Shown here piece after piece: positions 1,997-57,236 of a stretch of DNA of 64,000 nucleotides. The notes beneath the pieces are model-generated. The model worked only from the letters and a program-made list of their open reading frames with translations, made no database searches and was not told where the DNA came from. Every line of letters starts with the position of its first letter. Position 1 is the first letter of the stretch. The stretch comes from Protoeuglena noctilucae. Its lineage: Eukaryota. The stretch lies in the NCBI GenBank assembly GCA_958009085.1, contig OY253689.1, forward strand, positions 372,001 to 436,000. Reading direction: 5' to 3'. Position numbers and translations under genes: made by a program.

Positions 1997-2076
1997 GTCA
2001 CAACGATAGGTCGCCTGATGCAAGCTGCACCCGCGTTCCCCGGGGCACCGCAAAGGCATCCCTGCCCTACGTGAAG

Positions 2077-2081
2077 TTACA
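2077..2081 (-). promoter_or_regulatory. Putative TGTAA polyadenylation signal of the PP2C gene
   Basis: TTACA on + reads TGTAA on -, about 380 nt after the PP2C stop. TGTAA is the typical chlorophyte poly(A) signal. Confidence 0.4.
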
Positions 2082-2460
2082 CCGTCTACGTAATCATGTA
2101 CAGCTCAGCGGCCCTTCCATGATCAAATATTTGCCACATGCAACTGCGTCATTGCCTCGCATGCGGCCAGAGCTCAACGATCGAGCTGGCCAAAGCTGCC
2201 CAGTTCTGACACACACTTCAGCACGCTGCCCCGAGAAAAGTAGGTCTCCTGGTCCGTCTGTAGCGGAAGTAGATCCGACGCAGAAATGCAGGACTAGATA
2301 CAAGCCAGGCCAGGCGGCCCTATCGAGCGCAGGCAAAGCGCTGCGCATTTGTGGCCCGGCATCGACCGAGAGTCGAACGCGCGCGGCGCAAGGAGCCTTC
2401 GGAAGCGAAAACCATCGCAACACACAAGTTCCGGCGCCCCGCCCGCGCCCCGGCCCCGCC

Positions 2461-4975
2461 TCAGTTGATCTTCTTGAGCTGCACGACCATCGCAGTCATG
2501 TTGTCGCATCTGTGTGCGGGGAAGATGTAGTAGCGAAGGTGAGGAATGGGGACGATACTGAAGTAGGCAAGGAATGAATTGACAGCAGGTGAGCGGGAAG
2601 AGGCGATACCGAAGCAGGCGAGGGTTGCGATGACAGCTGAGCAGGTGAGAGATGATGCCACGCATTTAACATCCCTCTCTGTCTCTCTCTCTCACCCCTT
2701 GCCGGTCCCCTTGGTGTCGGGCGCCAGGCAGTGGTCGCAGAGTTCCTCGCAAATGACCCGTGGCGCCTTGCCCACCCGCAGCCGCTCTCGCACAAAGTCA
2801 ACGGCCTGCTGGTTCTCCAAGACGTCCCAGATGCCGTCGCAGGCGAGGATGATGAACTCGTCGCCCGGCTGCAGGGGCTGCCGCATGATCTGCGGGGGAG
2901 GGGATGGAGGCAGGCGGGGTCGTTAGCTGTGACTGGATGCGGACGCTGTCACACGCACCCCTGCTGACAAGTCGAGAAGAACGTCGGGATCGAAACGCAA
3001 CGCTGAGAGGTTGGTAACCCCACAACACCACCACCCTGCCAACACCCGCACCACCCCACCACACCCCCACTCATGCCCGCGTGCCCCGCCTCTCACCTCC
3101 GGGAACGCCGTGACCATCTGCTCCTCGGGCGGTAACTCCCCCGACTGCTTGTACTCGAGGTCCCCCAGGGCGCGCGAGAGGTTGAGGGACCCGTTCACGC
3201 GCCCGTCCACCACCATGCCACCCGCCTTGGTGATGCGCGCCAGCTCCACCTCGTCATTCGGCTTGTGGTCGTGGCTCATCGCCACCGCCACGCCGTTGCG
3301 GCACAGCACGGCGCGGCTGTCCCCCGCGTTCGCCACGTACAGCACGCCCTTGTGCACCAGCGCGCACACCGCCGTGCACCCCGCGGACGTCGCATCGCCC
3401 GAGGCGTCGTCCTGGGTGGGAGAGGGGTGATGTGCGGTGAAGTTAAAGCTCATGGGAGCGGTGAATGTGGTGGGGACAGTGAGCGGGGCTGACACCAGGT
3501 GCGTGACGGGTGCGAAGTGGTGGTCGGTAGGACAGAGCAGCACAGCCACTGCCATCCCTGCCCAGACCCTCTATTCTCTTTCGTTCCTAACACCCAACAC
3601 CCCACCCCGAAACACAGCACCACCCCACCCTTCCCCGCCCCTCACCTCCATGGCGGCGTCGGCGTCGTCGTCCCCCGCGCGCCCCAGCGCCGCCGGGTCC
3701 ATGCTGAGCGTGATATCGCGCTCTCCGTCCTCCTCCCCCATCTGCGCCGCCAGCTGCTCCCGCACCATGCGGATGATCTGCTGGTTCATCGACACCCCTC
3801 CCGAGTCCTCGTCGTCGCTTGCCTTCAGGTCCGCCAACTCCCTGCGGTGCTCCTCCTGACGCATCAGGTCGTCCAGCCGCACGTAGCACCTCTGCGCACG
3901 CGTGAGTGACACAAAGAGGCACCGTTCAGCATCAGTGCAGCAGTCCATGTGACTACATGCAGCCGCGCGTCACACCGTCACCGACCGATGCGCAATGTCG
4001 CGATCACCAAGCGGCATAGAGAGCACCATGGCACTGCGCAGATCATCGATGGTAGGTCCTAACACGCAATGCGTCGGCGCTCGCCTCCAGTGCCCGCTCC
4101 ATCTGGCCCTGCTTGTACTCCTCCAGCTGCGTCAGCGTCTCTTTGATGTGCTTGGCGACGAACTGCGCGACCTCGCGGCCGCCGTGGCCGTCGAAAACGC
4201 CAAAGAGACCGCTGCCGGGGCCGTCCAGCGACACCTGCGGGGCCGCGGGGCGCAAGGAGGTGGCAAGAAGCCACAGGCAGGCGCGGGGCGTCCGCGGCGG
4301 GGCGCGCGGGGCCGGCTCGCCTCAGAGAGGTGCGCGTCCTCCATGGTGTTCCTCCAGCCTGCGAGCGCGGGGGTGCAATGGCTGGGCGCGCCGGCGTGGC
4401 GATTCAAGCGGGCACGGTTGTCATCGAGCGCCCTTGCCGGCCACGGAGCGCGTGAAACACGGCGAGTTCATCGCCAGGTACCGCTGGCAAAGCATGGGGG
4501 CAGCGGGCAGCAAGAGGCCCTCCTGGGAAGCGCGGGCCGAAAGGACCGATGCCTCGCGACCTGGCACGCCTGCCCCCGCTGGGTTGGCGGGAAGGGCGGT
4601 CGGAGAGGCCGATGAAGCGCCAGATCCCGGTATCTAGAAGCGTCTGAGACGCAATGATCGCCTCAGAGGACGCGGGCCGAGAGGGGGGCGGCCCAGGTCC
4701 CTCGCGGCACTTGGCGACCCCCCGGGCGCTAACGCCCCGCGAGGGGGAGCACCACAGCGATCGAGACGCAAGTCGAGCTCGCAAATGAAGTTGATCACGT
4801 CGATAGCAGCGCTCCCGGCTCCACGGCGAATTCGAAAATTCGGAAAAGTTTTCGAGCCCCGCGTGACGAGGCCTTGCCGCTCACCCTGCATCGCGCTGTA
4901 CCCGCAGACGAAGTAAGGCGACTCATGCTGCCCTGACTCCTTCTCCGTCTTGGGGGAGCTCAGGTACGCGCCCAT
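2461..4975 (-). CDS. Protein phosphatase 2C (PPM1G-like, MGAYLS N-terminus), 7 exons
   Basis: [94 protein letters not shown]. Two GC donors (4320, 4084). Confidence 0.95.
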
Positions 4976-5266
4976 GGCGCCCTGCGATCTCAGATCAGCG
5001 TCCCAACCGCGGCGTGGATCTGCCCAGCGACGCAGTCTGGGCGTGCGATTCCAGGAAAGGCGGAGCAGCGGCACGCCATGAGATTTATCAGCTCACTGGC
5101 GGGCGCTTGACACGGCCATGTGATTGTGTTTCGGCGGGCGACGCCGACACCGACAGAGGTACTGGTTCGTTGGTCGTGACCGAGTGGCTCCGTCTCGGAC
5201 GCGGCCACGGGCGCAGAGACGCCGCCGGGCGAGGCGGCAAGGCGAGGGGCCGAGGACGGGACGAAA

Positions 5267-7905
5267 TGGCGCTCCCGTTCAGCTTGACGGACGCCGTGGA
5301 CAACATCATCGATGGCGTTACCAACTTCTGGTCCTGGAACCTCAAGCGAGTTGGCGCGCGCGCCGCAAGGGCGGCGAATCCAGGGTCCACCCTCGCGTCT
5401 GCGCCCACCTCCGAGCCAGCCCGACCCGCAGGTCCTGCGCTTCCGCTCTTGGAGAGGATGAACGCACGCTCCGTGCCTACCTCGTCGCCGAGAAGGCCCT
5501 GCGTTGGAGGTTAGACTCCCTGCTCGCTGCGCACCTTGCGCCGCCTTGCCCGGCCTCCCCCGGTCAAATCTGACTCGCCTAGATCGCTACCACGTCCGCA
5601 GAGGTGTCGCGGTGCCCCAGGCCATCCTCGCGCACATCCACGGAGACCACCGCGGCCAAAAGCACGACACAAAGGAACGGTCCGACGGCAACGAGGCTCC
5701 CGAGCCCCGCGACGAGGATTTCGTCGGCCTCGGACCCAGGTAATGATGATATGGAGTTACATGTGTCGTTGGCCTAGCTGCGCCGCCCTATCGCGGCTCC
5801 GGCGCGCCGTCCTCGCTCAAGTCTCCGAACTTCACACGCAAGCTCTCGCTTCCACGCGCGCCTCTGTACGCGTTCCTACGCGCGCGACCCGCTCCTTCGC
5901 CGCAGGGAGGTGGCGCTGTACGCGTGCCTGACCGCGGCGGCCATCGCACCGCAGTTCACCTCCTTCAGCCGCAACCCCTTTGCGCGTCCGGGGGCCGCCC
6001 GCACCAAGCCGCGCCCCGGCTCGGGCTCCGGCCCCTCCTCCCGCAGCAGCGGTGGGTACGCCCCGCACCTTGCGTCGGACGGGAGCGCGCACGGAGACCT
6101 TCTGGAGCCGTCCCGCAGCGCCGTGACGGACTACCTCCGCCCGACGTTTTCTGGCATCGTGTCTGGCGTTTCTGGCACCCCCGGCGCCGGTCAGGACGCG
6201 TGGAACGCCCTGGCGGTCGCGGATGTGCTGCGGCGCGCCGCGGTGCTGACAAACCCCGACGCCGTGACAGCGGCTGAGGTGGGGGTGTGGATGGGGTGTG
6301 AGTGTTGGGGGCATGGGTGGGGGCTTGCATTTTGACACTCTGTCCATAAATCTTTGACTCTCTGCGTCTAATGATTTTCACTCTGCATCCCTCCCTCTCT
6401 CCCCCCCAGTTGGATGAGGAGGGCGCGGGTCACGTGCTGTGGCTGGTGGCAGGGAGGGACCCCGCCCTGCTGCCCGATGCCATTCTGGCATGGTGGGGGG
6501 CACTGCATGCCGCCAAGGTGAGGATGGTGGGGTGCAGTGGTGCAGATGCCTCACCACCGCCTCACTCACTCTCCCTCGCTCCGCACACCCACCCACGCCA
6601 CGCTCATCCTTCCCGTCACAATCCCCCCTCCTTCTCCTTCCAGGGCTGTCCCGGCTACCACCTCTCCCTCGCAGCCATCCTCGCCGCCTGCTGCCGACAC
6701 ACGGGGTGGGGCGCCGAGGACCTGGCCAGACGCACACTGCCCACGCTGCTGTCACGGTGGGAGGGCGATAACAGCGATGAGGAGAGGGGTGATAGAACGA
6801 CGAGTGGTGATAGAAGGAGAAGTGGTGATACAAGGAATGGCCACGGCGGTGGGAAGAAGGGCGGTGGTGGAGGTGGCAATGGGGGTGGTGGGGGTGGCAG
6901 TGGCGGTGGTGGTAACAGTGGTAACAGTGGCAGTAACAATAACAGTGGCGGCCGCAACACGGACGCCGCGCTCGTGGCGTCGCTGTGGGACGCCTGCGGG
7001 TGGACGGAGTCGGAATCGGAAGTCGCGGCCCGGCGCTGCATATCGCATCTCACCAGCCGCGCCAAGCGGGACTTGTCTCGCACCTCCGCCTCCGCCTCCA
7101 CCCTCCCACCCCCGCTGTCACTCCACCCCACCACCTCCCTGCCCGCCACCGGCTGCCCCTCGCCCTCGCCGCCTTTCCTCGACTCCCCCAAGCCCCGCGG
7201 CAGCGCGGGGGGCGCTACCAGCCGCCACAGCTCCTGGAGCGTTAGCGAGGGTGCCATTCCTTTGGGACGCAACAGCTCCCACCTCGCGATCTCTGAATGC
7301 CCAGAGGCCCTCGTTGTTGTGGCGGCGTTTGCGGAGGTGTGGCGGCGCAGGGTGCCTGGGTCGTGGCAAGTAATGACGTGGGACGTGTGCGGGGAAGATC
7401 TATTGGCGGTGCCGGTGAGGGCGTGTGTGGGGTGCTTGCGTGACATGTGGGGTCGTGTGCGGGTGAGCATGTGCCGTGAGGCGACTGTGGCTGTGGCTTG
7501 GGAGCGTGTTGCAAGTTTCCAATGTCACTCTTACTCTCACCCTCACTGCCACCCTCACTGCCACCCAAACCCCTCACCTCCCCACCCCCACAGGACCTCC
7601 CCCTGCCCAAGAGCACCCACGCATCTTTGATCAAGGCCATCACTGAGAACTTAGACCCCACAGCCACGGCAGATGCGCTGCTGGGTGCTGCCACCGTGCG
7701 GGCGCGGAAGGGGGGGGGCGAGGCAACGAGTCCGGGGGCGGGTGAGGCGTGCATGATTGTGCATGAACTATGCATAATTCGTTTTCAAACGAAACTTGCT
7801 TATTTGTTTACTTTCGCACTCACTCACTCACTCACACGCTCACTCAGTCCCTCCCTCTCTCTGCCTCACCTTTCGCACCCACATACCCTCCCCCTCCCAC
7901 ACAGC

Positions 7906-7952
<47 letters not shown>

Positions 7953-9309
7953 ACCCCCTTATCCCCCACCCCAGGCGACGATTTGGGTCAATCTGCCTCA
8001 CTCACTCACCCCTTTCTCACTCACCCCTTTCTCACTCAACCACTCTCACTCTCACTCTCACTCCCACCCCAGGCGACGACATGGGCCGATGCGCCTCGGC
8101 GCTGGCAAGTGCCTTCCGCTCCCTCTACCGCATCCCAGGCATTGATGGCGACTGGTGGGCGCGGCTGCTGCTGAGCATGGGGAGGGGGGACTGCCAGGTG
8201 AGGGGCAGTGGAGGGGCAGGGTGGGGTGGCATGGAGTGGAGTGTGTGTTCGTTACCTCTCACACCCCCACTCTCCCCACCCACACTCCCCACCTTTCACC
8301 AACCCCACTCACCCCATCTCCCCCCCATCCCCCCCCAACTCACCCCACCCCTCCCCAACTCACCCCACCTCCCCCCCCCCACTCACCCCACTCCCCATCC
8401 CACCCACCCCCAGGCATCCAAGCGCCTCTTAATGGCCTGGTCCGAGAGCATCGCCCCCCTCACCACCCCAGACGCCCTCGCACGCGCAATACAGTCCTTT
8501 CAAACCCTCACTGACAACGCCCTAGGCCCTTCTTTGCCCGCCAACGTGCTTATCCGATTGGAGCTATGTGGGGCGGGAGATGAGGCGCTGTCTGGCGAAG
8601 TGCTGGTGGCGATGGTGGCGGGGGCGGCGGAGGGGGGCGGGGTGGCGGGGGTGGCAGAGAGGGTGGTGGGGGCGGTAGAGGGGTGCGGGTCCGTGGAAAT
8701 GCAAAGCGCCACTTCACCCAGCGTCACTCCGCACGGCCAGGGCCGATCTGAGATGCGAGGGGACAGTGGGGCGATGCGGAGTGACGCTGTGGGTGCGTTG
8801 TGGTCGTATCTGCGGATCAAGGCGGGGCTGGTGGAGGATGCGGTGGACCTGGCGGCGGCAATCATGGCGGACGTGGTGATCACGTGAGTAGTTGGATGAG
8901 GGGTGATACGGGTGGGTGAGGGTGTAGTGAACGGTGAGTGGCGGACGTGGTGATCACGTGAGTAGTTGGATGAGGGTGAAGGTGTGAATGAGTGGATAAG
9001 AGTGTAATCAAGTACGAATGGCAGATGTGGTGGTGCAGAAGTGCAGCATGGGGTCCACATTGCACATCACACGCCGCACATCGCACATTGCATCACCCTC
9101 CCCTCCATCTCGATCCAATTGAATCCACCCCCTCTCCCCCACCACCCCCCCCACCCCCCCTCGTAGCCTCGACCCCTCCCCCGATGACATGGAGGAGTTT
9201 CTGGCGATGGGCATCTCCTGCGGTCTGACGGAGGAGTTTGTCGCTGCAGCGGTGAGAAGGGCGGGCTTGGACGGGGGGGATGGGGAGGGAGACTGAAGAG
9301 GTGGCGTGA
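5267..9309 (+). CDS. Multi-exon protein of unknown function
   Basis: Exons join in frame: MALPFSLTDAVDNIIDGVTNFWSWNLK|SCASALG..ALRWR|GVAVPQ..LGPR|EVALYACL..|..IMADVVIT|LDPSPDDMEEFLAMG..EEVA*. No domain recognised. Confidence 0.6.
7905..7952. repeat. (CACCCT)n microsatellite in an intron
   Basis: About 7-8 tandem CACCCT units. Confidence 0.85.
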
Positions 9310-10505
9310 AGCACGTTTGCGGTGCGGGTGAAGCACGTTTGCATTCACACGGCTAAAAGACTCTCTCGCACCATGCTCATACCACCAAAGCCTCGTGACA
9401 TTCGTCTGTCGTGATCCTTTGCAAACCCACGTGTGTTAAGGTTCCCCAACCGTTTCGGGAATCCTCGGCCCTTTCAGCTCTGCCAAACACACCTTGCCAT
9501 CGGCATTGCCTCGTCGTACCATCGTCATCCCCACCACCACACCCGCCCTTCACAAGTGGCACTCGCAAGCAACACAGAGGGGGCATGCCCTGTCTTTCTT
9601 CCCCATCACATCATCCCTCGTGTCTATATCCCTTTTGTCTATATTGCCGCGTTTCCCGACGCATAATCCCCATAGGCCCATCCCTGCCACATCGGCTGGG
9701 AGCTATAGGGCCACAACACGGCGGTGGCAACTACGGCCCCCCTTGCCATGCACCCCCACCCACGCACCCCATGCCTATGCGTGGCTTTGTTTTGACGTCC
9801 TATCAGCCTCAGCCCGGCGTCTCTTGCATCGCCTCCGGACCCCTTTTCGTTCCTCACCGCAATGTGCGTGCCCCTGTTTCTAATTACCCGGACACACATT
9901 CCGCATCCTGTCTGACCCATCCCACGTGGGATGCTGGGAGTTGAACGAACGCGAAACAACTCCACGAGAAAGGCACGCAGAAGACCAGTTGTCAGACGTG
10001 CGTCGCGTGACCCTCACAACCCATCGCTCTCTGTCACCCTCACTCTCACACCCATCTATCTGTCGCACGAGACTGCGCTCGCCGTTCAACGGAGCTACCC
10101 CCCGCCACCCGCGCAGCCATGCAACTCGCGGGTGCAGAGTCGCAGAGTCCCCGCTCGGCAAGGCAACGCACGCAGACCACTCTGCCTGTCGTCATCAAAG
10201 AGTCTCGCCTAGTCGTCAGTCTCCCATCCCCTTCACACCCACACCGGTACCAACCCAACCAACCACCGCCCACCCTCCACACCGCCTAAGCGGCGCTATT
10301 TCCACCCCCGCCCTGGCTCCCAGTCCTCTTTCCACCACCCGCCACCCCACCCCTGCACCCCCCACCACCCCCGCACCCCCTATGCACCCCACACCCATCC
10401 ACCCCCACCGCCCCTCGTCGCGCCGCCCCCCGCACCGCCCCACTGCCCCTAAGCACCGGAACCGGCAATGGGCACCGCTCGCGACGTTGCCAAATCGCTG
10501 CTTGC

Positions 10506-11903
10506 TTAGGACAGCGCCTTCTTGATCTCGTCGTACATGACGAGCACGAGCGCGCCACCGGCGCCGCGGATGACGTTGGACCAGGCGCCCTTGAAGAAGG
10601 CGCGGGGGCCCTCGTTGGCGGCGATCTTGACCCAGGCGTCGACGGTGCCCGTGTACATGCGCTCGCCCTTGGAGCCGGCCTGCATCATGAGCCGCCGGCG
10701 CACCGTGTCGAACGGGTACGACACCACGCCGGCCGCGGCCGTGACGGCCTGCGCGATCATCCACTTGTACACGATGCTCGCGTTCTTCTCGTCCTTGAGC
10801 AGCACGCCCTTGGCCGTGTCGTACATGCCGAAGTACGCCCCGCGGTACACGATGATGCCCTGCACCGACACCCCGAAGCCCTGGTAGAGGGCGCCCACGC
10901 CGCCGTTGCGTGCCACCTTGGTGATGCAGTCCAGCAGGCCGTTGAACTCGCGGCTGCGGGGAGGGAGGGGTGGCAGGGGAGGTGAGGGCGGGGGCAGGGG
11001 GGGTGGCAGGGGTGACAGCGAGGGTGAGAAAGCAGGCAGGGGTAGCAGGAAGGCGAAAGGTATAGGAAAGGGTCGGAAGCAGCGCAATAAGGGTCAGAAG
11101 CGAGCTGGGGGCAGCGTGGCGTGGCGCAGAGAGCTACATGAGCCCTCATCACGCCAACAGCAGGGCGCATGCTAACCCCTCCCCAACCACCACCCCCCGT
11201 GCTTCGCCAGCCATCTCACTTGGAGCCCTTGCCGACGTCCGTGGCGAGGCGGGTCCGCGCGAAGTCGAGGGGGTACACGATGAGGAGGGAGGCGGCACCG
11301 GCGAGGCCGCCCGAGGCGAGGTTGGTGGCGAAGAAGGACCAGAACTCGGTCTGCGGGTTGTAGCGGGGGAAGATGGCCTTGAAGGTGTCCTTGAAGGCAA
11401 AGTTGAAGGCCTGGGTCGGGAAGTAGCGGACCACATTGGCCAGGTTGCCACGCCTGGGGGCGGGGGGAGCGGGGTGTGGGGATGAGTCGGGAGAGCGCGC
11501 GGGGAGGGTGCGCGGGGACGCGCCGGAGGACGCGGAGCGCATCGGGGATCGCGGCGGCGGCGGAGGATCGCAGGGCGCGCGGCGGGGCTCACCAGAAGGA
11601 GGCGACGCCCTGCTCGGCGGCGACACGCGTGAAGCAGTTCACGATGCCCGTGTAGCGGGGGATCTCGCCGGACTTGATGCGGGGATTGGAGTCCTGGGTC
11701 TGGAGGAGCAGCTTGACGCGCTCGATGGGGGCCACGACCGTCTTGGAGATACCACCCGACACGCCACCCGCGGCCAGGTCGACCACGAAGGGCGGGAGGG
11801 CGCCCGCGGCCGGCGCGTCCTTCTTCGGCTTCGTCCCCTCCGCGCCGGACGCCGCCAGGAAGGCGGACCGCGCCTTGAACTCGCTCGCGATGCCGGACAG
11901 CAT
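10506..11903 (-). CDS. Mitochondrial ADP/ATP carrier (SLC25/AAC), 3 coding exons
   Basis: [84 protein letters not shown], ending in TAA. Confidence 0.95.
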
Positions 11904-13064
11904 CCTGCGCAGCACAAGCGCGGGCCGTCGGCGAAGCGGGGGCGGCGACGCGCGAGGAAAGATTGCTAGGGAGGATGTGGGAGCGGGTGCCGCGGCGCGA
12001 CGGCGCGGGCGCGCGGGGGGAGGCCTCGCGGGACTCGGGGCCCGCAGGCGGGGCCTCGGTGGCCGATGGCGGGCCGCCCGAGGCCCCATCGCTCGTTGAA
12101 AGGAACGACGCGCCCGGGACGGGTGCGGAGATCGCGGCGCGACGCGCGCGGGCGGCCCGGCCCCTCGCCTCCAACTCGGCCCCTCCACAGCCGGCGGGAG
12201 CGCGAACGGGGCGCGAGGAAGCCCGTTGAAAGGCCGTGGGACGCGAAAAGCGAGTGCCGAAGCTGGACTCGGGAGCCGCGGGCCGCAGGGGAGCGCACCG
12301 GCGGCCCCTTGCCGAGGGTCGGCAACTCGAGTTGATCCCGGGCGCCGAGGGGGCGGGGGCGGGCGGCCAGATGCGAGACCGCACGCTCCGAACCAAAACA
12401 GCGCGCAGCGCGGGGGCTCGGGGCCCCCTGCGCGCGCCGGCCGCGGGACACGGCGCGCCAAGGGCGGGGCACCGCGAACAATGGAACCGCGCCCCGGGAG
12501 GTCCCGGAAAGACCTCCCAGGCTGCGGGATGTTCCGTTTGAAAACAGGACAGCGCTCCGGGCCGCTGCATCCCGATCCCCGCTCCCGGGAGGGCGGGGCG
12601 AGCGTTGGGCCAGGCATCGCGCGGGCGTCCCCGAGCAGCCGCACCCGCAGCCGTGCGCGCGTCTGGGCAACAAGCAAGGCAGCGGGACTCCCGTGGCGGG
12701 GATCCGGCACCGGGAGACGCGCGGAGGGGAACCGAAACCGTGGGAGTCGCGTGCGAGGCAGCTGCGCGCGTGTCGACGCACCTGTACCCCTCACGTCGTC
12801 GACGCCTCGAAGCAGGAGGGTCTAGGGGCGGGCACGTGCCGCAAGTACGCGGCGGCGTCCCGAAACGCTGTTCTGATTCCTGACTCGCCCGGGATCCAGC
12901 CCCGTGAGGGCCGCAGCGCGCTGCTCCGAGTGCCAGAGGGAGAAAAAAACACGGCCGACCCCCCGGCGCCCAGGGCCTAGCGTGGGTGCTCGAGCTCGCT
13001 GGTGTCGAGCGGACGCATCGCACTTTCGCCCTTGTTGGCCAATTCGGATAAGCGATCGCCAGGG

Positions 13065-13872
13065 ATGGCTGGCGGTGAGGCGTCGACTCTCGCATACTCG
13101 ATGCAGACGATCGTGGCCACCGCGTTGACTTCGCCTGGGCGTGACAAGGCACCGCGCTCGGCAACATGCGCAGAGAGGCATCGATATGGCGCGCCCGAGT
13201 GGGTCAGGAACGTCCAGGGCACCGTGGGACGCATCCAGGGCACCGTCGGGCGCATCCATGGCGACATGGTCGAGGCGGGGACGGAGGAGCTGGCGGGCGT
13301 GCGCACAAACTTCAAGCGCACGTGGAAGCGCCACACACAGAAGTGGATGCGGAGCGTGGCCAAGGTGCACAGCCGCTGAAGCGTCACTGCGGCAGCGGCC
13401 TGGCCCGCGCCCTTGCCCGCATGGATGCCGCAACTGCTGCCCCGTCTCGTCCTCCGTGCAGGTCTGTGTCCCCGGCCTTGCAGCCGGGTGTCTGGCCGTG
13501 CACGTGGTCAAGCAGTGCATCCAGGGGGCTCTGAAGGCGCTCCTGCCGCGGCAGCGCCACCTGCACCTCGCGGTGGACTTCGTGATGCGCGTGTGCCTGC
13601 CCACGGCGGTGGTGGGGCCGGTCGTGTTCGTCTACCTCGTCCCGGAGGTGAGGCAGATGGGTGGTTGACACAGGGCGGACCCGCTCTGTGTAAGGCGGTA
13701 ACCCACCTAACAACGACGCCGTCGCTCGCCTGTGCAGAGCATCTTGGCGGTGGGCGCGGCTTACATCGAGGGCATCAGCGACACGATCAACGTGCAGCCC
13801 CGCCTGCCGACCCTCTCGTCCCTCCCGTTCCTCAACGGCGGCGAAGACAAGTTACGGGCGGAGCTGGACTGA
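13065..13872 (+). CDS. Small putative membrane protein of unknown function; start uncertain
   Basis: Exons join in frame: ..VQGTVGRIQGTVGRIHG..WMRSVAK|VCVPGLAAGCLAVHVV..VVGPVVFVYLVPE|SILAVGAAYIEG..RAELD*. Hydrophobic segments and a 21-bp coding tandem repeat near 13211-13260. Confidence 0.55.
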
Positions 13873-14009
13873 CGGTGCCAGAGGCCGCGCGCCAGGAGTG
13901 GTGCTGGTGCAGCCGGTGTGACGATTTCTGCCGCGTTTCCGCCGCACAGCGCCGTTATGCGTGCCGGATAACATAACGCAGACGACTCCGCTCAGCCTCG
14001 CGGCCGGAC

Positions 14010-17000
14010 ATGGCGAACAAGGACCGGGGCCGCGGCGAGGCGGCCCCGGCTCGCGTGGACGAGGCCGACGGGAGCGCGGATCCGGATTCCCACATCAAAA
14101 GCCTGCCGACGGTCGTCTACGATGCGGCCGAGCGCGAGAGGTGCGTGCGCGGGGGTGCTTGTCCCGATCTCGATCGTCTCCCTCCCCCCGCGCCCGACCG
14201 CGACCGCCTACCCTTCGCGATTCAGGGCCCGTCGATCGGCGGCAGAGTCCGAGGACCTCCAGCGCCCGGTGCTGCAGCGGTACCTCGCCCGATCCCTGCG
14301 TGCGGTCAAGCAGGTGGGCCATGGCCGTGCTTTGCCGCCTCCCGCTACCCGCTTGCCGCCGCGAACCTGCTCGTTTGCCCTTCGCAGAGGTTCCTGGCTC
14401 CGCGCTGGCGCGTCACCGAGGAGCACCACCTCAGCGCCCCCGTGCTCGTCGCCTGGGCTTACGCCTTTTGCTTCCTCTTTCACGACTGGGCGTCCCGCAG
14501 CTGGCTTACTTTCTGGTACCGCTGGACGCTGGGCGCCGTGCGCGACGCCCTCCCGCCCCTGGATGGCGTCCGCGTGCAGCTGCGGGAGAGCACGGGCGAG
14601 ACGGTCGCGCTGCTCGCCCTGGGGGCCCTGGTGGGGCTGGGGCTGGCCAGGTGAGACGAGTAATGGCGGGAGGGGAAATGCGGGGGAGGGTGTGAGGTGG
14701 GAAGAGCGGTGGTTAGGGGGGTTGTTAGGTAAGACGAGCGCGAGCGATTGGATGGTCGTTAGGCGACACGCATGCGATACTGCCCCCCCCCCCCCCCCGC
14801 CCCCCCCCCCCCCCACCCTCCCCTCTACACCTCCCCCCAGGCTCCGTTTCCGCCGGGAGGAGCGCCGCTCCGTCCTCGCCGCTGCCCTGGAGACCCAGCC
14901 GGGGTTCCGATACCTCCGCTCGGTCCTGACGCAGCTGCCAGATTACGTGACATTGGGAGAGGGGGGCGAGACGTGCGAGTGGCTCACCAAGCTCGTCGCG
15001 CAGGTCTTCCCCGCCGTGCAGGTGTGACGGGTGGTGTGCATACTAAGTATGGCTGTCGGTGCTTTGTGTAGCATCATCTCCCAGTTCCTCTCTCATACCC
15101 TTCCCGCCACTCACCCCTCTCCCCCACCCCCAGGCCTCCCTCTCCAGCATCATTTCCCAGTTCCTGGAGCCCGTCCTGGACCATAGCAAGCCCCCCGGCA
15201 TCCGATCGCTGAAGATCATCAAAGTCGACATCGGCACCAAGCCGCTGCAGTTCCTGGACGTACGCACGGTGCCGTTTGGGAACGAGGACGAGAGGCAGTT
15301 CGCCATGGACTTCGGTGAGTTCCTAAGATACATGGTGTTGTATCTTATGTGTGCAATTTGATGTGCAATTTGATGGTTGGGATGGGGCACAGTGTGTGCG
15401 TCGCTGACGTGATGTACCAGTGCTGGTGCAAAAATGTCCTGGGTCATCATAGCGCCTCTAGTGATGACTAATGGTGGGAGCAAAAACGGAAGATTATTTC
15501 AGTATGATCCCTTCTCACCTCATCCCCAGACATGGTGTTCGATTCCGAGCTGGATGCCCAGATGGCTATTCAGCTGGCCCAGATCACCAGCATTGCGCAA
15601 GTCAAGGACTTGAAACTGCAGGCCACGCTGAGGGTCCTCTTCGCGCCGCTGGGGCCCAAGGCGAGGATATTATCGGGGAGGGGTAGTAGAGGGGTGTTGG
15701 GGAGAGGTGTTGGGGTGTTAGAGGGGAGCGTGGGTGGGGGTGGTGGAGTGGATGTGGCTGTGGATGGGCAAGAGTGGTAGCCACTCCTTTCCCCACCCAC
15801 TCCCATACCCCACAGTCACCCACTCACATCCCCACCGACACACTCTCCACCCATGTCAGTTCACACATCAATCCGCACCAGCATCCTCATTGCCATTCCC
15901 CCCTTTCACACAGATCCCCGTCATCCGCGCCCTCTCCATCTCCTTCGCCCGCACCCCCACGGCCAAATTCCAGGTCCGCACCAAGGGCACTCCCCTGCCT
16001 GCCTTTGTGCTCACCTGGATTTCGAATATCATCACGGAAATGGTGCTGGAGTGGTTCGTGTGGCCGGAGCGCGTGGTGGTACCCATCGACACGAGCGGTG
16101 AGGCGATGATTGAGGGAGTTTGTAATTGTGATGGTGGTGGTGCACCCCCAGTCCCCGCCTTCACGCTCGAGCCCCAACCCACTCCACTCACCCCACCCCA
16201 CTCACCTTCCCCCACTCCCCCACATTGCACCCCCCTCACCCCATTTACACCCCACTCCCCCCACAAACACCCCACTCACCTCCCCCCACCCCTCTCAGTC
16301 CCCGCCTTCACGCTCGAGCCGCACCCCCTGGGCGTCATCCTTGTCAAGGTCAAGTCTCTGGAGCTGATGGAGGGGGTGCACGCGAATGCGATATTCTCCA
16401 AGCGACGCCGCGTGAGGCTCAAGATGTGGACGAGGGCGGGGGGGTCGCGGGCGTCGACGATCTCGGCCGTGCCGCACCGCATCAGCGCGATTGGTGAGAT
16501 AAGGGGTGGTGGTGAAGTGGATGGGACGGGTAGCAGTAGAGGTGGGGTGATTGGTGGATATCACTTCTGTCACTCACCCTTCGCTTCCCCTTTTCTCTCC
16601 CCAGGCCAGGCGGGGCAGCATTTCGAATTCGTGGTCAAGGAGCCCGCCAGCGAGCCACTGGTGAGATATGCAGGATTTGAATATACCAGAATGTACTAAC
16701 AAATGACCAGTTATTGACAATCTTGGCCATCAACTTTCCCATCAGTTGTCATAGACGCCCACATTTGTCACGAATGACAAGTTTTATCATAATAATTATT
16801 ACCTTTTATACCCTTTATATACCCTTCTTTCATCCCCCCACCATTACCAGTTCTTCGTCCTCGAGTCCGTGGGACTCCGCGCCTCCCTCCGCGTCATTTC
16901 CGCCATCCCCGTCGCCCGCGCCACGGTGTTGATCCAGGACGTGATTGACGACTGCGGGGGGGCGGCGGATACGGAGGTCAACTACGGGTGAGATATATAT

Positions 17001-44100: not shown

Positions 44101-47100
44101 TGCTCTCCTCGCCCTCCCCGCCCCCACCCCCGCTGTCGCATCCCCCGCCCCATCCCCCTCTCCGTCCCCCGCCCTCGCCCCCAGTGCCTTGACGCTGACG
44201 TTGCGGCGCTCTGCGAGGGGCCCGCGCTGCGCTGCGGGGTCCTGCATTGCGCCGAATTGGCCCAGGAAGGAGGCCTTGGCGGGGGTGTAGCCGTCGGGCT
44301 CTGCTTGGGACCGGAAGGGGGGGGGGAGATGGTGTGATAATGACGATGATCATATGTGGAATGATGATATGTGGGAGAGAGAGTGGAGCAGTTGAGAGAG
44401 AGTGGGGAAGCTGAGGAAGCGGGGCAGCAGAGAGTGGGGCAGCAGAGTAAAAGGGGCAGACACCGCAAACAGTGGGCTACGACCAATACCACTATTAACA
44501 CCCAGAGATCATCACACTTTCACATCCCCTCACCTGCGTGGTAGCTCCCCGGGTGATACGCGCGTCCCTTGCCACCCGCCCCCTCCTCCCTAACACTGCG
44601 GCTCGCACCCACCACACGCCTCGCGCCCCCCGCCAATCCCGACCCAGCCCCCTCCCGCCCCTCACCCCACGCCACCCTCACCGCACCCGCACCCGCAGCG
44701 TTAACCCCGTCCGCACTCGCACCCCCAGCAGTGGGGGTGGGCGTGGGGGTGGGCGTGGGGGTGGCGCTGGCACTAGGCACGCGAGTGGTGGATGCGGGGC
44801 TGGGGTTGCCCGAAGAAGCGGCGGCGCGCGCAGCAGTGAGGGACGCGAGGCTGCTGGGGCGCTTGAGGGAAGCGGGGGCGTGGCGGGTGGCGAGGGGTGG
44901 GTGGGGCGTGGCATGGGCGCGTGACACCCCGCCCTCGCTGAGGGTGGAGGCGACGGCGGCGGGGCGCGGGCGGTGCGTGGGGGATGCGCGGGACACGGGG
45001 GACTGCGCTGTGCCGCCTGGGGAGGGAGATGGGAGGGTGGGGGGGTGCATTGGTGGGTAGGGGAGTATGTGAAGCGACTGTGTGGGGTGGGGTGGGACAC
45101 ACGACATCGTTGCATGCGATGCAATCGACAATCAATGATGAGACGCACTAAGTGAACACGAGATGCAGCTAATCCTCTCATCAACCCTCTCAGCCGCGTT
45201 ACAACCGCAACCCCCCCACCACTCGTTGCAACTCATCCCCACCCTTCCCCTCCCATCCCACCCCTCTCACCCCCACCCATCCCCAGCACTCACCCGCGGG
45301 CCTATACGTCGCCTCCAACGCCGCCCACTCCCCGGAAGGCGCATACTCCGCACACTCCTGCCCCAACCGCCCCTGCAACGCCGGCGGAGCGCGCGACAGC
45401 GCCGCAGCTCCTTTATTCCCGGGCGCCCTCGCATGATACGCCGCGAAAGCTTTGCGGCATAGGGCGCGCGCGCGTGGGTCTGCGTCCTCGCATCCCTTAA
45501 GCAGAGTCGTTTCTATTTCTGGCAATGCGCGAGATAGGGCGGGGCGGGTGAGGTCCCATGCCTCGCACACCAGCAGGAGCCATGCGGCGGCGGCGGCGCG
45601 GAGTTCTCTGTGTTTGTCGCGGAGGGCTTGGGAGAGGAGGGGGAGCAGGCGGGGGCTGCGGGGGGGGAAGGGGAGGGGTGCGGGTGCGTAGGTGATGGGG
45701 ATGTGCGTGGAGGGAGGTATGGGGTGAGGGGAGGGGAGGGGTGCACGGGTTTGGGAGGTACTAAGTGTGGGGAACGCGTTACATGAGACAGACAGAGATG
45801 GGGAGCGACACTGAGTGTGGGAGACATTGTATGACATTGCCTCGCACATCATTGTCGCACATCGTCACACCCCACGCCCCCCTCACCTGTGGCAGCTCCA
45901 CAGCACCGCCGCCACGCACTCCCTCGCGCTTTCCGCCATAACCTGCACCGTCAGCACCGCGACGCGGAACAGCACCGGCAACAGGTGCGACGCCGCCGCC
46001 TCGAACCCCGCCCCCGCCGCCCCCGCCATCGCCCCCACCAGCTGCGTGGCCTGCCGGCACACGGCAGACCGGCGGTCCTGCAATTGCGACTCGAGCGCCC
46101 GCGCCATCTCCCGGCAAGCGTCGCCGAAACCATCTATGCTCCCCGCACCCCCCCGCACCACCTCCTCGAACCGCCCCATCGCCCCACACCGCGCCTCCCA
46201 GTCCTCCCCCGTCCCCGACAGCGCCGCGCACGCCGCTTCCACCTCCGCCCGCAGCTGCGCGAGGGTCTCCACCACCCGCACCGCTCCGCTCGTCGTCGCG
46301 TGAGTTGGGGCGGAGGTGGGAGACGGCCCCGTGGCGCGGCGGGACCCCGGGCGCCGCGCCGCGCTCGCAGAGCCCGACGCGGATCCCTGCGAATGCTCGC
46401 TGTGCTCGCGGCGGGGCACGCGGGCGGGCGAGGAGTGGCGGTGGCCGATGGGGGAGGCGTTGCCCCCACCCAAAGGGGACCCCTCGCCCGTTGCGGCAGC
46501 CACGCTCCCCGCCCCGCACGCGGCCTCGATGCGCGCGTGGACGTCCTGCATCTGCGCGGGTCGCAGCGCGTGTGGCTCGAGCGCCCGCAGCACCGCCGCC
46601 GCCCCGACCGCCCCCGCCAACGCGGCCAGCGCGTCGGCTGCCGCGGCCCTGGGCACCGGCGAGGGGTCGTCGAGGAGCCCCGCGAGACGCGGCACGAGCG
46701 CCCGCGCGGCGTAGGCATCGCCGATCGCCTCCGCGCCCAGAGACTCCGCCAGCCCCGCCACCACGGTCGCCACCCCGGCGCGCGCGTGGTGGCTGCAGTG
46801 GGTCCAGGCGCCCGCTGCGTCCATGCGCTCTAGGAGAGTCTGTCCCGGGTGCGGCCCCGGCGCCACGTCGCGCGCGGCGAGGTCGGTGAGGGCGTCGATC
46901 GCCGCATCGCGCACGGAGGGGGTGGCGGATGCCAGTGGGTCGATGAGGAGGGGGACGAGGGCGGGCAGGCGGGGGCGGAAGAGGTGAGGGTCGTTCTGCA
47001 CCGCCGCGCGCAGCGCTGTCAGGCCGTCCGTGGAGGTCTGCGGGAGGGGAGGGGGGGGGGGTCAGAGGTGAGCGAGGGGGCGGGGGCGGTGGTCCGGCCA

Positions 47101-48565: not shown

Positions 48566-48765
48566 NNNNNNNNNNNNNNNNNNNNNNNNNNNNNNNNNNN
48601 NNNNNNNNNNNNNNNNNNNNNNNNNNNNNNNNNNNNNNNNNNNNNNNNNNNNNNNNNNNNNNNNNNNNNNNNNNNNNNNNNNNNNNNNNNNNNNNNNNNN
48701 NNNNNNNNNNNNNNNNNNNNNNNNNNNNNNNNNNNNNNNNNNNNNNNNNNNNNNNNNNNNNNNNN
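48566..48765. other. Assembly gap (200 N)
   Basis: Run of N. Confidence 1.
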
Positions 48766-48963: not shown

Positions 48964-50863
48964 TGGGGGCGGGGAGGGCGCGACGGCTCGCGAGGTGCTG
49001 CGTCACCGGGGCGTGGAGCGTGTGATTATGGTGGACATCGACGAGGTGGTGTGCCGCTTCTGCGCACAGCACCTCCCCAAGAACACCGCGGCGTTCAAGG
49101 ACCCCAGGTGGGGTGTTGGTGGGAAGGGGGTGTCGTAATGTTGTAACGTTAAGTGAAGATTGCATGTGAGCGTGCGGGGGGGGGGGGGGTTGATGCTGAG
49201 TGGGGCTTGTCTCTCTGTGCTGTACACGACGTGCTTGTTTACCACCCAAGTAGTGATGCCACATCACTACTTGCGCCCCCACATCAACCTCCCCCTCCCA
49301 TACCGCCCCCCCCCCCCCCCCCCCCACCCAGGCTCACCCTCATCCACAACGACGCCCGTGCCGAGCTCGAGCGCGTCCCCGACGGCTCCCTTGACGTGGT
49401 CATCGGTGACCTGGCGGACCCCGTGTTCGGTGGCCCCTGCTACCAGCTCTACACGAAAGATTTCTATGAGAATGTCGTGAGGCGCAAGCTGGCGCCCGGG
49501 GGCATCTTCGTCACGCAGTCGGGGCCGTGCGGGGCCGAGTCGTGCACGGAGGTGTTCACGGCCATCCACAACACGCTCAGGTGAGCTCAGGTAACAGGGC
49601 ACAGGACTGTTACACCATCACAGGGTGATACCATCGTCAGCATGGGATCATAGAGCGCAGAGGGCGCATGGCATTGATGTGTTCCTCATAGAGAGCCGGC
49701 TGGGACTCTCTGGCAACCTAGTCCCGTGGCATTGAAGCTCCGTTCAACCCCTAGATTACATCACGGGGGCTTCGGCCGGTAAGCCCCAGTGATGTAATCT
49801 AGGGGTTGTCTATTGGAGCTTTACTGCCAACGGTGCTAGGTTGCCACAGTCCTAGCCGTCGCTCTACGAGGAAGGCGTCAATGCTTAGCGCCCACTGCGC
49901 TCTATGATCCCATGCTTGCTGACGCTGGGATTACCCTCGACCGCTGACGCAGGGCTAATTCTGCCCCCTTTCCCAACACCACGCCATGCCATGCCATGTT
50001 ATCTGCCTCTTCCTCACAACCCCCTCCCCCCCTGCACCCATCCCACACCACGTTCCTCACTCTCACAACCCCCTCCCACCCCACCCCACACACCCACACC
50101 CCCTGCACCCATGCCACACCATGTTCCTCCCTCTCACGCCCCCTCCCAACCCCATCCCCCCACACCCACCCCCCCCTGCACCCCCGTGCCATGCTTTGTT
50201 CTCGTGTGCTTTGTTCTCACAAGCCCCTCCCACCCCCACACCCTCCACCCAACCCCCCCACCCCCTCCCCTCACATCCCCCAGGCAAGTCTTCCCCCGCG
50301 TTCTCACCTACAAGGTCCCGATCCCATCCTTTGTCGACTGCTGGGGATTCAACGTGGCGCTGTCAGACCCAGAGGGCACGCCCGCGCTGGCGGCTGAGGA
50401 ACTGGACCGTCGGATTGAAAAGCGCATCGAGGGGGAGCTGGAGTATTTGGATGGGGCGTACATCCTGGGGATGCAGGTGAGAGTTGGGGTGGGGGTGGGG
50501 GTAGTGAGGATGGGGGTAGTGGGGAAGATGGTGCGAGGTGTACATCCTGGGGATGCAGGCGAGGGGGGTGGAGGGGGGTGGGGGCAGTGAGGGTGGAGTG
50601 ATGGGCATGCTCTAAACCCTCACCATCCGCGTCAGCCCCTCTCTCTCATGCACCCTTATCATCCACATCAGTCCCTTCCATCCACGCCTCACATCCACGC
50701 CTCCCATCCCCACCCCTCCCAGTGCACCCCTCCCATCCACACCCCTCCCACAATCACGCAGACGCTCCCCAAGTGCATCCGGCGCCGCATGGCAGAGGAG
50801 ACGCACGTCTTCACCGAGGACGCGCCCAGGTACCTCAAGTCGGGGGCAGGGCTCAAGGCCTGA
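48964..50863 (+). CDS. ACL5: Thermospermine synthase (ACL5-like aminopropyltransferase); 5' part missing in the gap
   Basis: GGGEGATAREVLRH, MVDIDEVVC, GDLADPVFGGPCYQLYT, GIFVTQSGP, VFTAIHNTLR|QVF, PSFVDCWG. These match ACL5-type rather than spermidine-synthase (GGGDG..DSSDP) motifs. Confidence 0.88.
49622..49937 (+). ncRNA. Long intronic fold-back, candidate miRNA precursor
   Basis: Arms 49622-49772 and 49781-49937 are imperfect inverted repeats with an 8-nt loop; 8 of 9 transition mismatches are G:U-compatible on the sense strand. Confidence 0.6.
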
Positions 50864-51345: not shown

Positions 51346-53252
51346 ATGGACGTGGCTCAGCGCGTCTCAGCCGTCGCCGCCGGCTCCTCCGGTGAGCTGC
51401 GGGACCTTCGCGGCGCATGGAGATGTGCGAAATTTGCGGACGCGAGCTACTGCTTAAGACGCTGCGCGCCCGCGGAGTCGCCGGCGGTCGCGGCATGCGC
51501 CTACGCTGATCAACGCCCCCGCAGGCGTCTCGGGCGACTGGGACATCGTCTCTTCGCGATATGCGCGCTACGAGATGACGATACCGAGCGTCGCGTCGTC
51601 GCGGCCCGCAACGGGTGGGTCATCGGCCCGCGCTGCGCCCTGGCACGCGCTGCCACCTCCTGCCCTGCACCCGTGACGCCCGGCCCCGCCCGCAGGCCTC
51701 CGCCCGCCTTCGTACGCCGCCTCCTCCATCGCCCCGGCCGACCCCGGCTCCCGGCCCCGCTCGCCCGACGCCCCGGACATGTGGCACGCCCTGGGCCTGG
51801 GCCCGCGCCGCACGCCGTCCCGCCCCTCCCGCGCCGCGCCCCCGAGCGGCCTCTCCGGCCGCGACCTGGCGTCGACCGAGTACCCCGAGGACGCCCCGCC
51901 GCGCTCGAGCGTGCACGCGGGGGCGCGCACGGCCAGCGCCACGAGCGGCCCCCGCCCTTTGGAGCCCAACCCGGTGCTGGCGGAGCAGCCCCTGTCGGAT
52001 CCCCGCCGCATGCGCCTGCTGCAGGTGGACGGCTGCCTCGTGGACGACCTCTCCGCGGGCCGCCTGACCTCGCTGACCCTGGCTGCGACGCGCGTGTCGG
52101 TGCGGCAGCTGGAGATGCTGAGCGAGGGCATCGCGCGGTGCCCCTCCCTCGCGCTCCTCAACCTCTCCGCGACGAATGCCACGGACGCCCACATGGACGT
52201 CCTCAGCCGCGGACTCCGATTCAACCGCTCCATCGCCTCGCTTGACATCTCGGCCAACCTCATCGCCGACCGTGGGGCCGAGGTCCTCGCGCGCGCCTGC
52301 GCGCAGCACGGCACCCTCGAGCACCTCTACTTGCAGGTGACTGCCAGTCGCCGCGGTTGCCAGGCGCTGGATGGGGTCCTGGTGGTGCCGCCACATGACA
52401 CCGTTGCGGTTCTGTTCACGCGCGCTAGTTGCTGACGCACCCACCCCCCTCGCCCCGCAGATCAACAAGGTGGGCCCGCGCGGCATGTACGCGCTGTGCC
52501 TCCACGCCGCCCACATGACATCCCTGCGCTCCCTGGACGTGTCGAACAACCCCCTGGGCGATGACGGCGTGCGGTGTTTAACTAAAATGGCCGACGAGGC
52601 CGCGTTCGACGGGCGCCAGGTGCCCCTGGAGCGCCTGTACCTCAACACGTGCGCGTTCGGCGTCGCGGGGGCCGAGTCTCTGGCCGCGCTGCTCGAGGCC
52701 GGCAAGCTCCCGCGACTCGAGGCCGTGCACGCGTCCGACAACGGCATCCCGGACGGCATGGCCATGCGCCTGCGCAAGTGGGCCGCGAAAGCTGGCGCCG
52801 ACGTGCGCCTGGCGACTTCCATGGCCGACGTGGTGGACCTCTCCTGGTGGGTTGACCAGCAGTCGCCCCCGCCCCTCGACCCGATCGAGCGCGCCCTCCT
52901 GGACGGCGTCGTCGACCCCTCCCTCCCCACGCGCGGCCTCGCCAGCCGCCTGGAGGACTTCCCCATGCACGACAGCGTCGTCACGGGGCGAGCCTCGGGG
53001 GCGGGCGACACGGACGACCCGGGGCCGCTGGGGCTGGGGAGCGTGGCAGGGGAGGGCGAGGGGGTTGACGAGGGAATGGAGGTGTCGCCGGAGTGGAGGG
53101 AGGGGACGGCGCGGGGGAGGCGCAAGACGCACATGGGCGTGGTGCTGGGGGACGGGGGCGGGGCGGCGGGGGGGGGCAGGCGGAAGACGCACGTGGGGGC
53201 CCTGGCGGGGCTGGGGGGAGGGGCGGGGGTCTCGTTCGCCCGGGAAGTTTGA
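51346..53252 (+). CDS. RNI-like leucine-rich repeat protein, 4 exons
   Basis: LRR motifs LALLNLSAT, IASLDISANLIADRGAEVLA, LEHLYLQ|INKVG, LRSLDVSNNPLGDDG, LERLYLNTC. Upstream exons from ATG 51346 join in frame. Confidence 0.8.
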
Positions 53253-55714: not shown

Positions 55715-57236
55715 TCATGCCCCCTTCCTCTCCGTGCGTCGGATCTCCACCCCCGGGTGCGCGGCTGCATACGCGTCCTCCATCCCCACGTATCGGTCCC
55801 GCTGCCTCGCAAACGTCTCCTGTGACAGCATACAGGGACAGCAGGCGCGTGACGAAACGGGGATGTTGATAACAAGGATAGGCATCTCTCTTTGCGCAGT
55901 GTCCCTTGCAAGAACACCCCAGTGCCTCCATTCCCCCTCGCCTGCGTCACCCTGTTCCCACTCCCACTCCCCCTCTCTCTCACCTGCGTCACCCTGTCCA
56001 CCAGCAGCACCCCCTGCAGGTGGTCGTACTCGTGCTGGAAGATGCGCGCCTCCCACCCCCGCACGTCGAGCACGAAGGGGCGGCCCGTGAGGTCCTGCGC
56101 CCGCACCTTGATGCTCGCGTGGCGGGACACGTCGCCCAGGATGAGGCCCTGGGGAGAGACGGAGTGGAGGGGAATTGAGGGGTGAATGGGGGAACACTGA
56201 TAGACGCAGCCAAGGCGAGGGGTTGAGTGGGGGAGCACTGAGTGGGGATGGGCAGCGAGTGGAGGGCTGTTGAGGGGTGAGTGGAGTAATACAGATAGGC
56301 GACTGAAAGCGGATCAGGCGTTGGTGGCACAGCCCACCGCACCGTCACCTATGCATCTCTAACTGACAGGCACCCCTCCTCGCCCATCTCCATCCGCACC
56401 GTCACCTGTGCGTCCTTGAACGACAGGCACCCCTCCTCGCCCATCTCCATCCGCTTGCTCCCCGACACGACCCTCGGGTTCACCAGCACCACCTCGCTGT
56501 TGCGCCGCTCCCTCAGACCCGTGGGGTTGAACACCATCAGTCGCACGTTCACGCCCACCTGGGGCGCGGCCAGGCCCACGCCGTCGTCCATATACATCAC
56601 CTCGAGCATCTCAGACGCCAGACGCGCCAGCTGCAGGGGGACATGGGTGTGCATGGGTGGGGGACTGCTGCAGTCCTGGTCCCTATGATAGTGCCATGGG
56701 CGTGGATTGGATGTGCTATCCGCATGTGTCACCTTGGCGTCAAACACCCCGATCTTGGCATTCTGCTGGCGCAGGCGCGGGTCGGGGTACCTCAGGATGC
56801 TGTCGAGCGTCAGCGGGCCCTCCCAATCTGTGTGGCACAACACTTGCGGGAAGCGTTGTACCAGGCCGGCAGGATTGTACGCAGAGAGACCGACCGCCGC
56901 TTGCTGTGCGCCTCTCGCCTGGTATCTCCGTCACGGTGGGTGCGTCGTCTTTCTCCTCCTCTTCCTCCCGCTTGACGGATGCGAGCTCTTTCATCAGGAA
57001 GCCCCTGCGCACGGAGCGGCCGCGGGGTCGACGCGGAAGCCAGTGCAACTGGAGCAACGGACGATATTTGTAGATCAGACTCACCTGCCAGCCTCGACCG
57101 GGCGGCCCCTGCGCTGGGCGCGGCACGCGCGGGCCGCGAACAGCCGCGCGCCCATCCGCAGCGGGCCGGCGACGTCGCGGCACCGATGGCCGGCGTGCAG
57201 CGCACACAGTATTGTCCCTTGCAACGCGTGCGACAT
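55715..57236 (-). CDS. PDF1B: Peptide deformylase (PDF1B-like, organellar)
   Basis: Transit-like N-terminus, ILRYPDPRLR, motif 1 GVGLAAPQVG, motif 2 EGCLS, motif 3 QHEYDHLQG. Confidence 0.93.

Follow-up and report, generated by a model that had tools for sequence, protein, structure and literature searches.

A long palindrome in a spliced intron of an algal thermospermine synthase gene, possibly a relic of a low-copy repeat family

The thermospermine synthase gene studied here carries, in an intron that is removed from its transcript, a 316-nt imperfect palindrome (49622-49937) whose + strand RNA folds as one continuous hairpin. The preferred reading, to which a probability of about one in two is given, is that this hairpin is a copy or relic from a small family of palindromic repeats, either foldback or MITE-like, lying in a lineage-specific intron. 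It builds on the palindrome, the splicing of the intron, a related locus elsewhere and the absence of the intron from relatives; the mobile or repeat origin and the lack of function are inferences that it adds to these. A palindromic repeat of such a family would have come into the intron, where it would be transcribed with the gene, folded in the pre-mRNA and discarded with the spliced intron. The RNA structure would then be a by-product of the DNA palindrome, and the excess of G:U pairs on the sense strand would reflect chance or mutational asymmetry, with no selection involved. The original prediction had instead taken the hairpin for a candidate miRNA precursor under selection for its RNA structure.

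The window, that is, the whole stretch of 64,000 nucleotides (64 kb) that was analysed, contains the features listed below. Public contigs are named by their sequencing run: X1 is a run labelled with the organism, X5 and X6 are marine metagenomes from another study, and X9 is a marine metatranscriptome. MFE stands for minimum free energy.

49333..49580, + strand: thermospermine synthase exon upstream of the host intron; protein family PF01564 (protein search, X9 contig)
49581..50283, + strand: host intron, 703 nt, GT..AG, removed in RNA (one X9 contig, with 196 nt on its shorter side)
49622..49937, + strand: imperfect palindrome, 134 pairs, 8 G:U
49622..49773, + strand: left arm, with the limits of the MFE fold; its outer 54 nt are 49622-49675
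49639..49660 with 49895-49916, + strand: outer perfect duplex, 22 bp (arm alignment)
49745..49764 with 49789-49808, + strand: apical perfect duplex, 20 bp (repeat search, MFE)
49774..49778, + strand: terminal loop of the MFE fold; counting the repeat arms alone leaves a gap of 8 nt (49773-49780)
49779..49937, + strand: right arm (alignment and fold)
49938..49959, + strand: segment outside the right arm, common with another locus (X5 loose ends at 49925 and 49959; depth bins)
49960..50283, + strand: C-rich low-complexity intron tail with direct repeats of 43-69 nt (X1 word depth 50-150 times single-copy)
50284..50476, + strand: downstream exon (X9 contig)
50477..50761, + strand: next intron (the loose end of the X9 contig behind 50476 maps to 50762)

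The hairpin and its host intron

The exons on both sides of the intron encode part of a protein with the spermidine/spermine-synthase fold, and the identification of the gene as a thermospermine synthase agrees with the name that its relatives bear in their sources. Splicing is documented by a 904-nt metatranscriptome contig (X9 record 25), which covers 49000-49108, 49354-49577 and 50281-50476 and skips 703 nt at a GT..AG joint equivalent to 49581-50283. Since 49580 is directly followed by 50284 in this contig, the intron is a true one that is spliced out, and its co-transcription with the gene, which the original prediction had assumed, is supported. The sense pre-mRNA must contain a hairpin of great stability, about 150 bp long, because the intron is transcribed with the gene. 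No X9 contig lies over 49616-50231, a gap that counts neither for nor against RNA from the hairpin, and the RNA runs X9-X12, of which X9 alone was aligned, contain 0.37 of the sampled words of 49300-49960, a fraction that fits the exon only.

The palindrome is not an artefact of the assembly, since the marine metagenomes X5 and X6 hold the same one, with no differing letter over 49354-50239 and 49363-50023, respectively. The contig of X1, a run that is read as DNA because it contains no spliced joint, spans the hairpin with one differing letter over 49354-50420. The contigs of these three runs offer no population variation usable for covariation.

When 49610-49950 is folded, the + strand forms a single hairpin with 49622:49937 as its outermost pair and an MFE of -240.4 kcal/mol, compared with -120.1 +/- 5.7 kcal/mol for shuffled sequences (z -21.0; 0 of 100 shuffles as good). 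The original prediction had made its case depend on an unequal folding of the two strands, and the - strand indeed reaches -227.5 kcal/mol (z -18.0), so that the sense fold lies 12.9 kcal/mol below the antisense one. Arms of about 150 nt were recovered as predicted, by RNA folding as well as by a repeat search, which gives three collinear blocks: 49639-49707/49848-49916 (69 nt, 84%), 49708-49727/49830-49849 (20 nt, 85%), and 49745-49772/49781-49808 (28 nt, 96%), the last with the expected 8 nt separating its arms. When the left arm is globally aligned to the reverse complement of the right one, 127 of the 153 columns match and 4 indel events occur; the arms diverge by 13-20% along the whole hairpin, and their outer 54 columns are 87% complementary. 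Both perfect duplexes described earlier were found again, the 20-bp one in the MFE fold and the 22-bp one in the alignment, the MFE fold breaking the latter up into 8 and 18 bp, with a bulge of 4 nt.

In composition, the hairpin differs from its surroundings. It has 56% G+C, in a window of 64%, and a GC skew of +0.03, whereas the remainder of the intron is C-rich with a skew of -0.67, in keeping with the predicted picture of a complex sequence amid low-complexity ones. It is also the sole long inverted repeat in the 64-kb window that is not built of G-runs or C-runs. The lower G+C content and this singularity favor the repeat reading.

The hairpin begins 41 nt past the 5' splice site and ends 346 nt before the 3' splice site. 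This geometry would fit a role as a splicing aid, in which folding takes 316 nt out of the 703-nt intron and brings the 5' site nearer to the branch point and the 3' site, and the gene's other two verified introns measure just 224 and 285 nt. The clean splicing of the intron also suits such a role. The shortening effect is nevertheless no evidence of function, because any inserted palindrome would do likewise, and the role is regarded as very improbable.

Several other sequences of the gene are structured or repetitive. A 200-N assembly gap (48566-48765), with a long G-run behind it, precedes the first RNA-confirmed exon by about 230 nt; the window does not allow the gene model to be completed in its 5' part. 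In the preceding intron (49109-49332), a run of G14 (49176-49189) is able to pair with one of C20 (49306-49325), and there is also a perfect 12-bp mini-palindrome with a 3-nt loop (49247-49258/49262-49273), seen by eye. Over 50064-50287, as well as over 50456-50623, the summed word depth in X1 rises to about 1,800-16,400, compared with about 109 for single-copy sequence: the C/CA-rich or G-rich tracts at these places are massively repeated in the genome. Within the window, blastn of the C- and G-rich intron tracts returned just weak matches to other such tracts. The C-rich stretches 50069-50091 and 50229-50270 are complementary (78-93%) to the G-rich 50477-50500, the first 24 nt of the next intron, so that the 193-nt exon 50284-50476 is bordered by potentially pairing pre-mRNA. 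The neighboring long open frames include a CLASP_N/HEAT (TOG-like) frame at 45886-47061 (-), LRR_6 at 52341-53249 (+), PP2C at 2926-3570 (-), and peptide deformylase at 56352-56930 (-), and 10 other long open frames in the window had no Pfam match at E 0.001.

Related copies and the age of the intron

Copies of the hairpin were sought in public contigs of the DNA runs X1, X5, and X6, aligned at 80% likeness. Each run contains one contig (X1 record 3, X5 record 11, X6 record 19; 1130-1410 nt) in which 45 of 54 letters, about 83%, are identical to 49622-49675, leaving 9 differences. The letters that precede this match are identical in the three runs and unrelated to the window, and the homology therefore starts exactly at 49622, the first paired base. 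X1 and X5 also agree in the 30 letters that follow 49675, which loosely resemble the window by eye, and the other locus gives the impression of a diverged copy of the arm, not of a short chance match. X5 contains a further piece on 49925-49959; the 30 nt before it, as read from the alignment table, are like the right arm at 49884-49913 with a deletion of about 10 nt, and they bear a triplet specific to the right arm. Since this piece extends over 49925-49959, the repeated unit may end near 49959, not at 49937.

Sequencing depth gives a matching picture. Depth above the single-copy level is seen at the outer ends alone (49616-49671 on the left, 49896-49951 on the right), and the bins from 49728 to 49895 are at single-copy depth in X1, X5, and X6. 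The left-end contig itself has a depth of about 1x single-copy in X5 and X6 and of about 3x in X1; because the right-end depth in X5 and X6 fits that of the left-end contig, both ends may belong to one and the same other locus. With a left-end locus and a right-end piece elsewhere, the hairpin can be placed in what appears from these alignments to be a low-copy family of at least two loci, with its ends kept better than its interior. Conserved ends and a divergent interior are characteristic of repeat families bearing terminal inverted repeats.

As for the hallmarks of a MITE or foldback element, terminal inverted repeats are present, the whole unit being an inverted repeat, and dispersal may be reflected in at least one other locus with different flanks in 3 of 3 DNA runs, along with the right-end piece in X5. 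A target-site duplication is lacking: none of at least 2 nt flanks 49622/49937, as had been noted before, and this counts against a mobile origin. A direct repeat, CAGGGC, does occur at 49595-49600 and 49950-49955, 22 and 13 nt outside the hairpin; it is probably not a target-site duplication, because inverted termini are absent inside it and its right copy falls within the sequence common with the other locus. The copy number, with one extra left-end contig per run, is low, which likewise counts against this reading. The search for copies, by which the original prediction would have told a MITE from a hairpin gene, was divided in its outcome: a related locus exists in the contigs of all three DNA runs, but none in the 64-kb window, where blastn gave self and arm-to-arm matches only. 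Likewise, instead of the many copies with terminal inverted repeats and target-site duplications that were to identify a MITE, there are related copies, few in number and without a duplication. Beyond the organism, a 24-letter pattern fitting both arms had 0 matches in metagenome_contigs and 0 in viral_contigs, which is a point against the repeat reading.

The same observations bear on a simpler origin, a one-off local inverted duplication produced by a replication template switch or fold-back repair and followed by neutral decay, in which case the other locus would be a later partial duplication. The lack of a target-site duplication, the finding of about one other related locus only, and the divergence of 13-20% throughout the arms would all suit such an event. 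It explains less well that the homology of the other locus opens exactly at the base of the hairpin, or that a separate piece resembles the right end down to letters specific to the right arm; the base-exact homology on the left and the right-end piece suggest that the palindrome was copied as a whole unit. In addition, blastn of the window revealed no source sequence nearby. A one-off duplication is accordingly considered improbable, and origin from a palindromic repeat family is preferred over it.

The repeat reading also draws on the age of the intron. The best match of the thermospermine synthase is unnamed and 82% identical, and the best named relatives, from Chlamydomonas incerta, Edaphochlamys, Coccomyxa, [Myrmecia] bisecta, and Chloropicon, are 70-74% identical. 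Two other exons of the window likewise brought no close named relative to light in protein searches: for the TOG/CLASP-like one, the identity to Haematococcus and Tetradesmus is 26%, and the best named partial matches of the PP2C exon are those of Helicosporidium (67%) and Mantoniella (61%). Judging by these protein identities, the alga, which is found in marine samples and metagenomes, would not be a close relative of Chlamydomonas or Volvox. The intron was compared with 80 related loci in metagenome contigs, with a best-segment identity of at most 74%, of which 64 hold both flanking exons and 16 the first exon only. In 62 of the 64, there is no room for an intron at the site (57 with 0 extra nucleotides and 5 with -3 or -6); of the remaining two, L060 has 149 extra nucleotides and L077 is a spurious pairing. 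The intron 49581-50283 is therefore taken as lineage-specific, a result that is soft insofar as some of these contigs may be transcript-derived or prokaryotic, yet contigs of 10-134 kb are among the intron-less ones. A blastn of the hairpin against the 80 loci gave one 14-nt chance match, and absence of the hairpin at identities of 74% or less says little for any hypothesis.

Strand bias and a possible small-RNA precursor

The main argument for selection on the RNA lies in the mismatches of the stem. Excluding 4 loop-proximal columns, there are 22 of them, comprising 8 that form G:U pairs on the + strand, 1 that forms A:C, and 13 transversions, and this independent global alignment reproduced the 8:1 count of the original prediction exactly. 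The sense hairpin folds better than the antisense one because of this G:U excess. If mutation were strand-symmetric, G:U and A:C outcomes would be equally likely, and 8 of 9 would be unusual (binomial one-sided p 0.0195). Flipping the strand of the 22 mismatches at random gives an E(+)-E(-) of +5.5 +/- 9.8 kcal/mol, compared with the observed -12.9 kcal/mol, and 8 of 400 permutations were as low. The two perfect runs (at least 22 bp and at least 20 bp) are mildly clustered as well: when the 26 breaks are placed at random, both runs arise in 4.6% of cases (p 0.046). The bias and the clustering count against the repeat reading.

These statistics are marginal, however, and concern a feature selected for looking biased. 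Moreover, the stem contains 13 transversion mismatches and 4 indels, so its pairing is not tightly kept, and this decay counts in favor of the repeat reading. The proposal that the strand bias suggests selection on the RNA therefore holds as regards the bias itself but is weakened as regards its cause. Transcription-associated mutational asymmetry is a possible cause of the G:U excess: in bacteria and mammals, the non-transcribed strand shows an excess of C-to-T or A-to-G changes. In the three verified introns of the gene, a small sample, the sense-strand GC skew is -0.01, -0.67, and +0.01, and the TA skew is 0.17, -0.03, and 0.02; they have no consistent sense-strand G+T excess, which is a point against this explanation.

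A different role for the hairpin, tentatively entertained here, is that of a functional small-RNA precursor (hpRNA or miRNA-like), a substrate of a Dicer-like enzyme in which selection keeps the sense stem paired. Just as tentative is the broader form of the idea, by which small RNAs, whatever the origin of the hairpin, would be cut from the pre-mRNA, or from the intron once it has been excised, in the manner of DCL3 in Chlamydomonas. The extreme stability of the sense fold, its advantage over the antisense one, and the 8:1 ratio are all in its favor, as are the location of the hairpin within an expressed, spliced intron and the two perfect duplexes of 20-22 bp, a sufficient length for a Dicer product.

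The criteria for plant-type miRNAs given by Axtell and Meyers in 2018 reportedly ask for a precise 20-24-nt miRNA/miRNA* duplex with 2-nt 3' overhangs, for one or two 5' ends that dominate the reads of the locus, and for a duplex region with few mismatches. The foldback is said to be limited to about 300 nt, a limit made for land plants; criteria for Chlamydomonas are set out in PMC5511227. The present hairpin is single and has few mismatches where a duplex could lie, namely in its perfect 20- and 22-bp blocks; its 316 nt from first to last pair exceed the land-plant limit.

In an Rfam scan of the hairpin, every family remained below its threshold: MIR856 (40 of 297 bits), mir-2813 (17 of 70), and snoU82P (11 of 42). 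The MIR856 precursor model (RF04153), a covariance model of a long hairpin from a family of the mustard family, aligns with 49689-49866 of the + strand at 40.2 bits (E 9.7e-08; gathering score 297), and the match is taken as a resemblance of shape only. No complementary target was found within the 64-kb window, target prediction being one of the checks that the original prediction had proposed. The left arm was also considered as a copy of a gene, by comparing its 46-aa frame with 1.84 billion proteins; the 2 matches were rejected as spurious, since they are unrelated tandem-repeat translations with 5-6 stretches each.

The enzymes involved are a further difficulty for a small-RNA precursor, since several green algae do without Dicer and Argonaute. 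According to the excerpted text of PMC4014436, Ostreococcus and Helicosporidium lack both, and the part of PMC3446292 that deals with the Coccomyxa genome reports Argonaute-like proteins and no Dicer homologue. Because the nearest named relatives are 70-74% identical and the organism occurs in marine metagenomes, a Chlamydomonas-type biogenesis cannot be assumed, and the Chlamydomonas and Volvox background on which the original prediction had relied is a weak premise for this marine alga. That the hairpin is both selected on the sense RNA and diced, in a marine green alga not close to Chlamydomonas, is doubtful.

If small RNAs were made from this locus, it would be a rare documented case of an intron-derived hairpin RNA outside the Chlamydomonas/Volvox group, and intron-embedded long-hairpin small-RNA genes would be no peculiarity of the Volvocales. 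Such a gene would ride on the transcript of a polyamine (thermospermine) synthase, perhaps born from a palindromic repeat family, and would provide a natural case for the turning of palindromic repeats into small-RNA genes in marine phytoplankton. If no small RNAs were made, the hairpin would be an ordinary intronic palindromic repeat relic, useful chiefly as a warning that selection is poorly supported by a G:U excess counted at nine sites.

Comparison with known systems

Introners, the intron-generating transposons described from marine protists in the available text of PMC9860276, resemble the present case in that a lineage-specific intron of a marine alga has a repeated sequence inside. 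An introner makes up nearly the whole intron, supplies or abuts its splice sites, and occurs as near-identical copies serving as introns in many genes. The hairpin takes up 316 of 703 nt and has only low-copy relatives at 80% likeness; it is no introner, as most of the intron lies outside it and both splice sites are at a distance from it.

The best-known algal counterpart is cre-miR1157 of Chlamydomonas reinhardtii, whose precursor derives from an intron of Cre12.g537671 (Valli et al. 2016, PMC4817775, in part). In that species, intronic stem-loops are cut by DCL3, and introns and UTRs account for 61.1% of miRNAs classed as high-confidence, by the same partial account (PMC4817775). As with cre-miR1157, a green alga here has a stem-loop inside an intron of one of its protein-coding genes, oriented in the sense direction and transcribed together with the host gene. 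Many Chlamydomonas precursors are long, young in evolutionary terms, and cut imprecisely, and their miRNAs are not common even to Volvox, as stated in the excerpt of PMC5511227; homology with them is therefore not to be expected. Unlike those precursors, the present hairpin, which has no sequence similarity to them and belongs to no close relative, is known from DNA and folding, and its stem of about 150 bp with several perfect blocks has more the look of an siRNA-type hairpin.

Among miRNA genes derived from MITEs, the examples given in the portions available of the respective sources are hsa-mir-548 from Made1 (PMC1784062) and several plant miRNAs (PMC3086885, 10.1101/2021.07.25.453727). The present hairpin differs from these in its very low copy number, in the lack of a target-site duplication, and in having no known transposase-bearing parent. 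Since MITE-derived miRNA genes have been described (PMC1784062, PMC3086885), the existence of a second family member is compatible with a small-RNA precursor, and the readings as a repeat relic and as a Dicer substrate may both be partly true. Like the MITE-derived genes, as far as these sources portray them, the intron of the thermospermine synthase gene contains a short palindromic non-coding repeat that forms a long hairpin when transcribed within a gene, with related copies that have common ends elsewhere in the genome.
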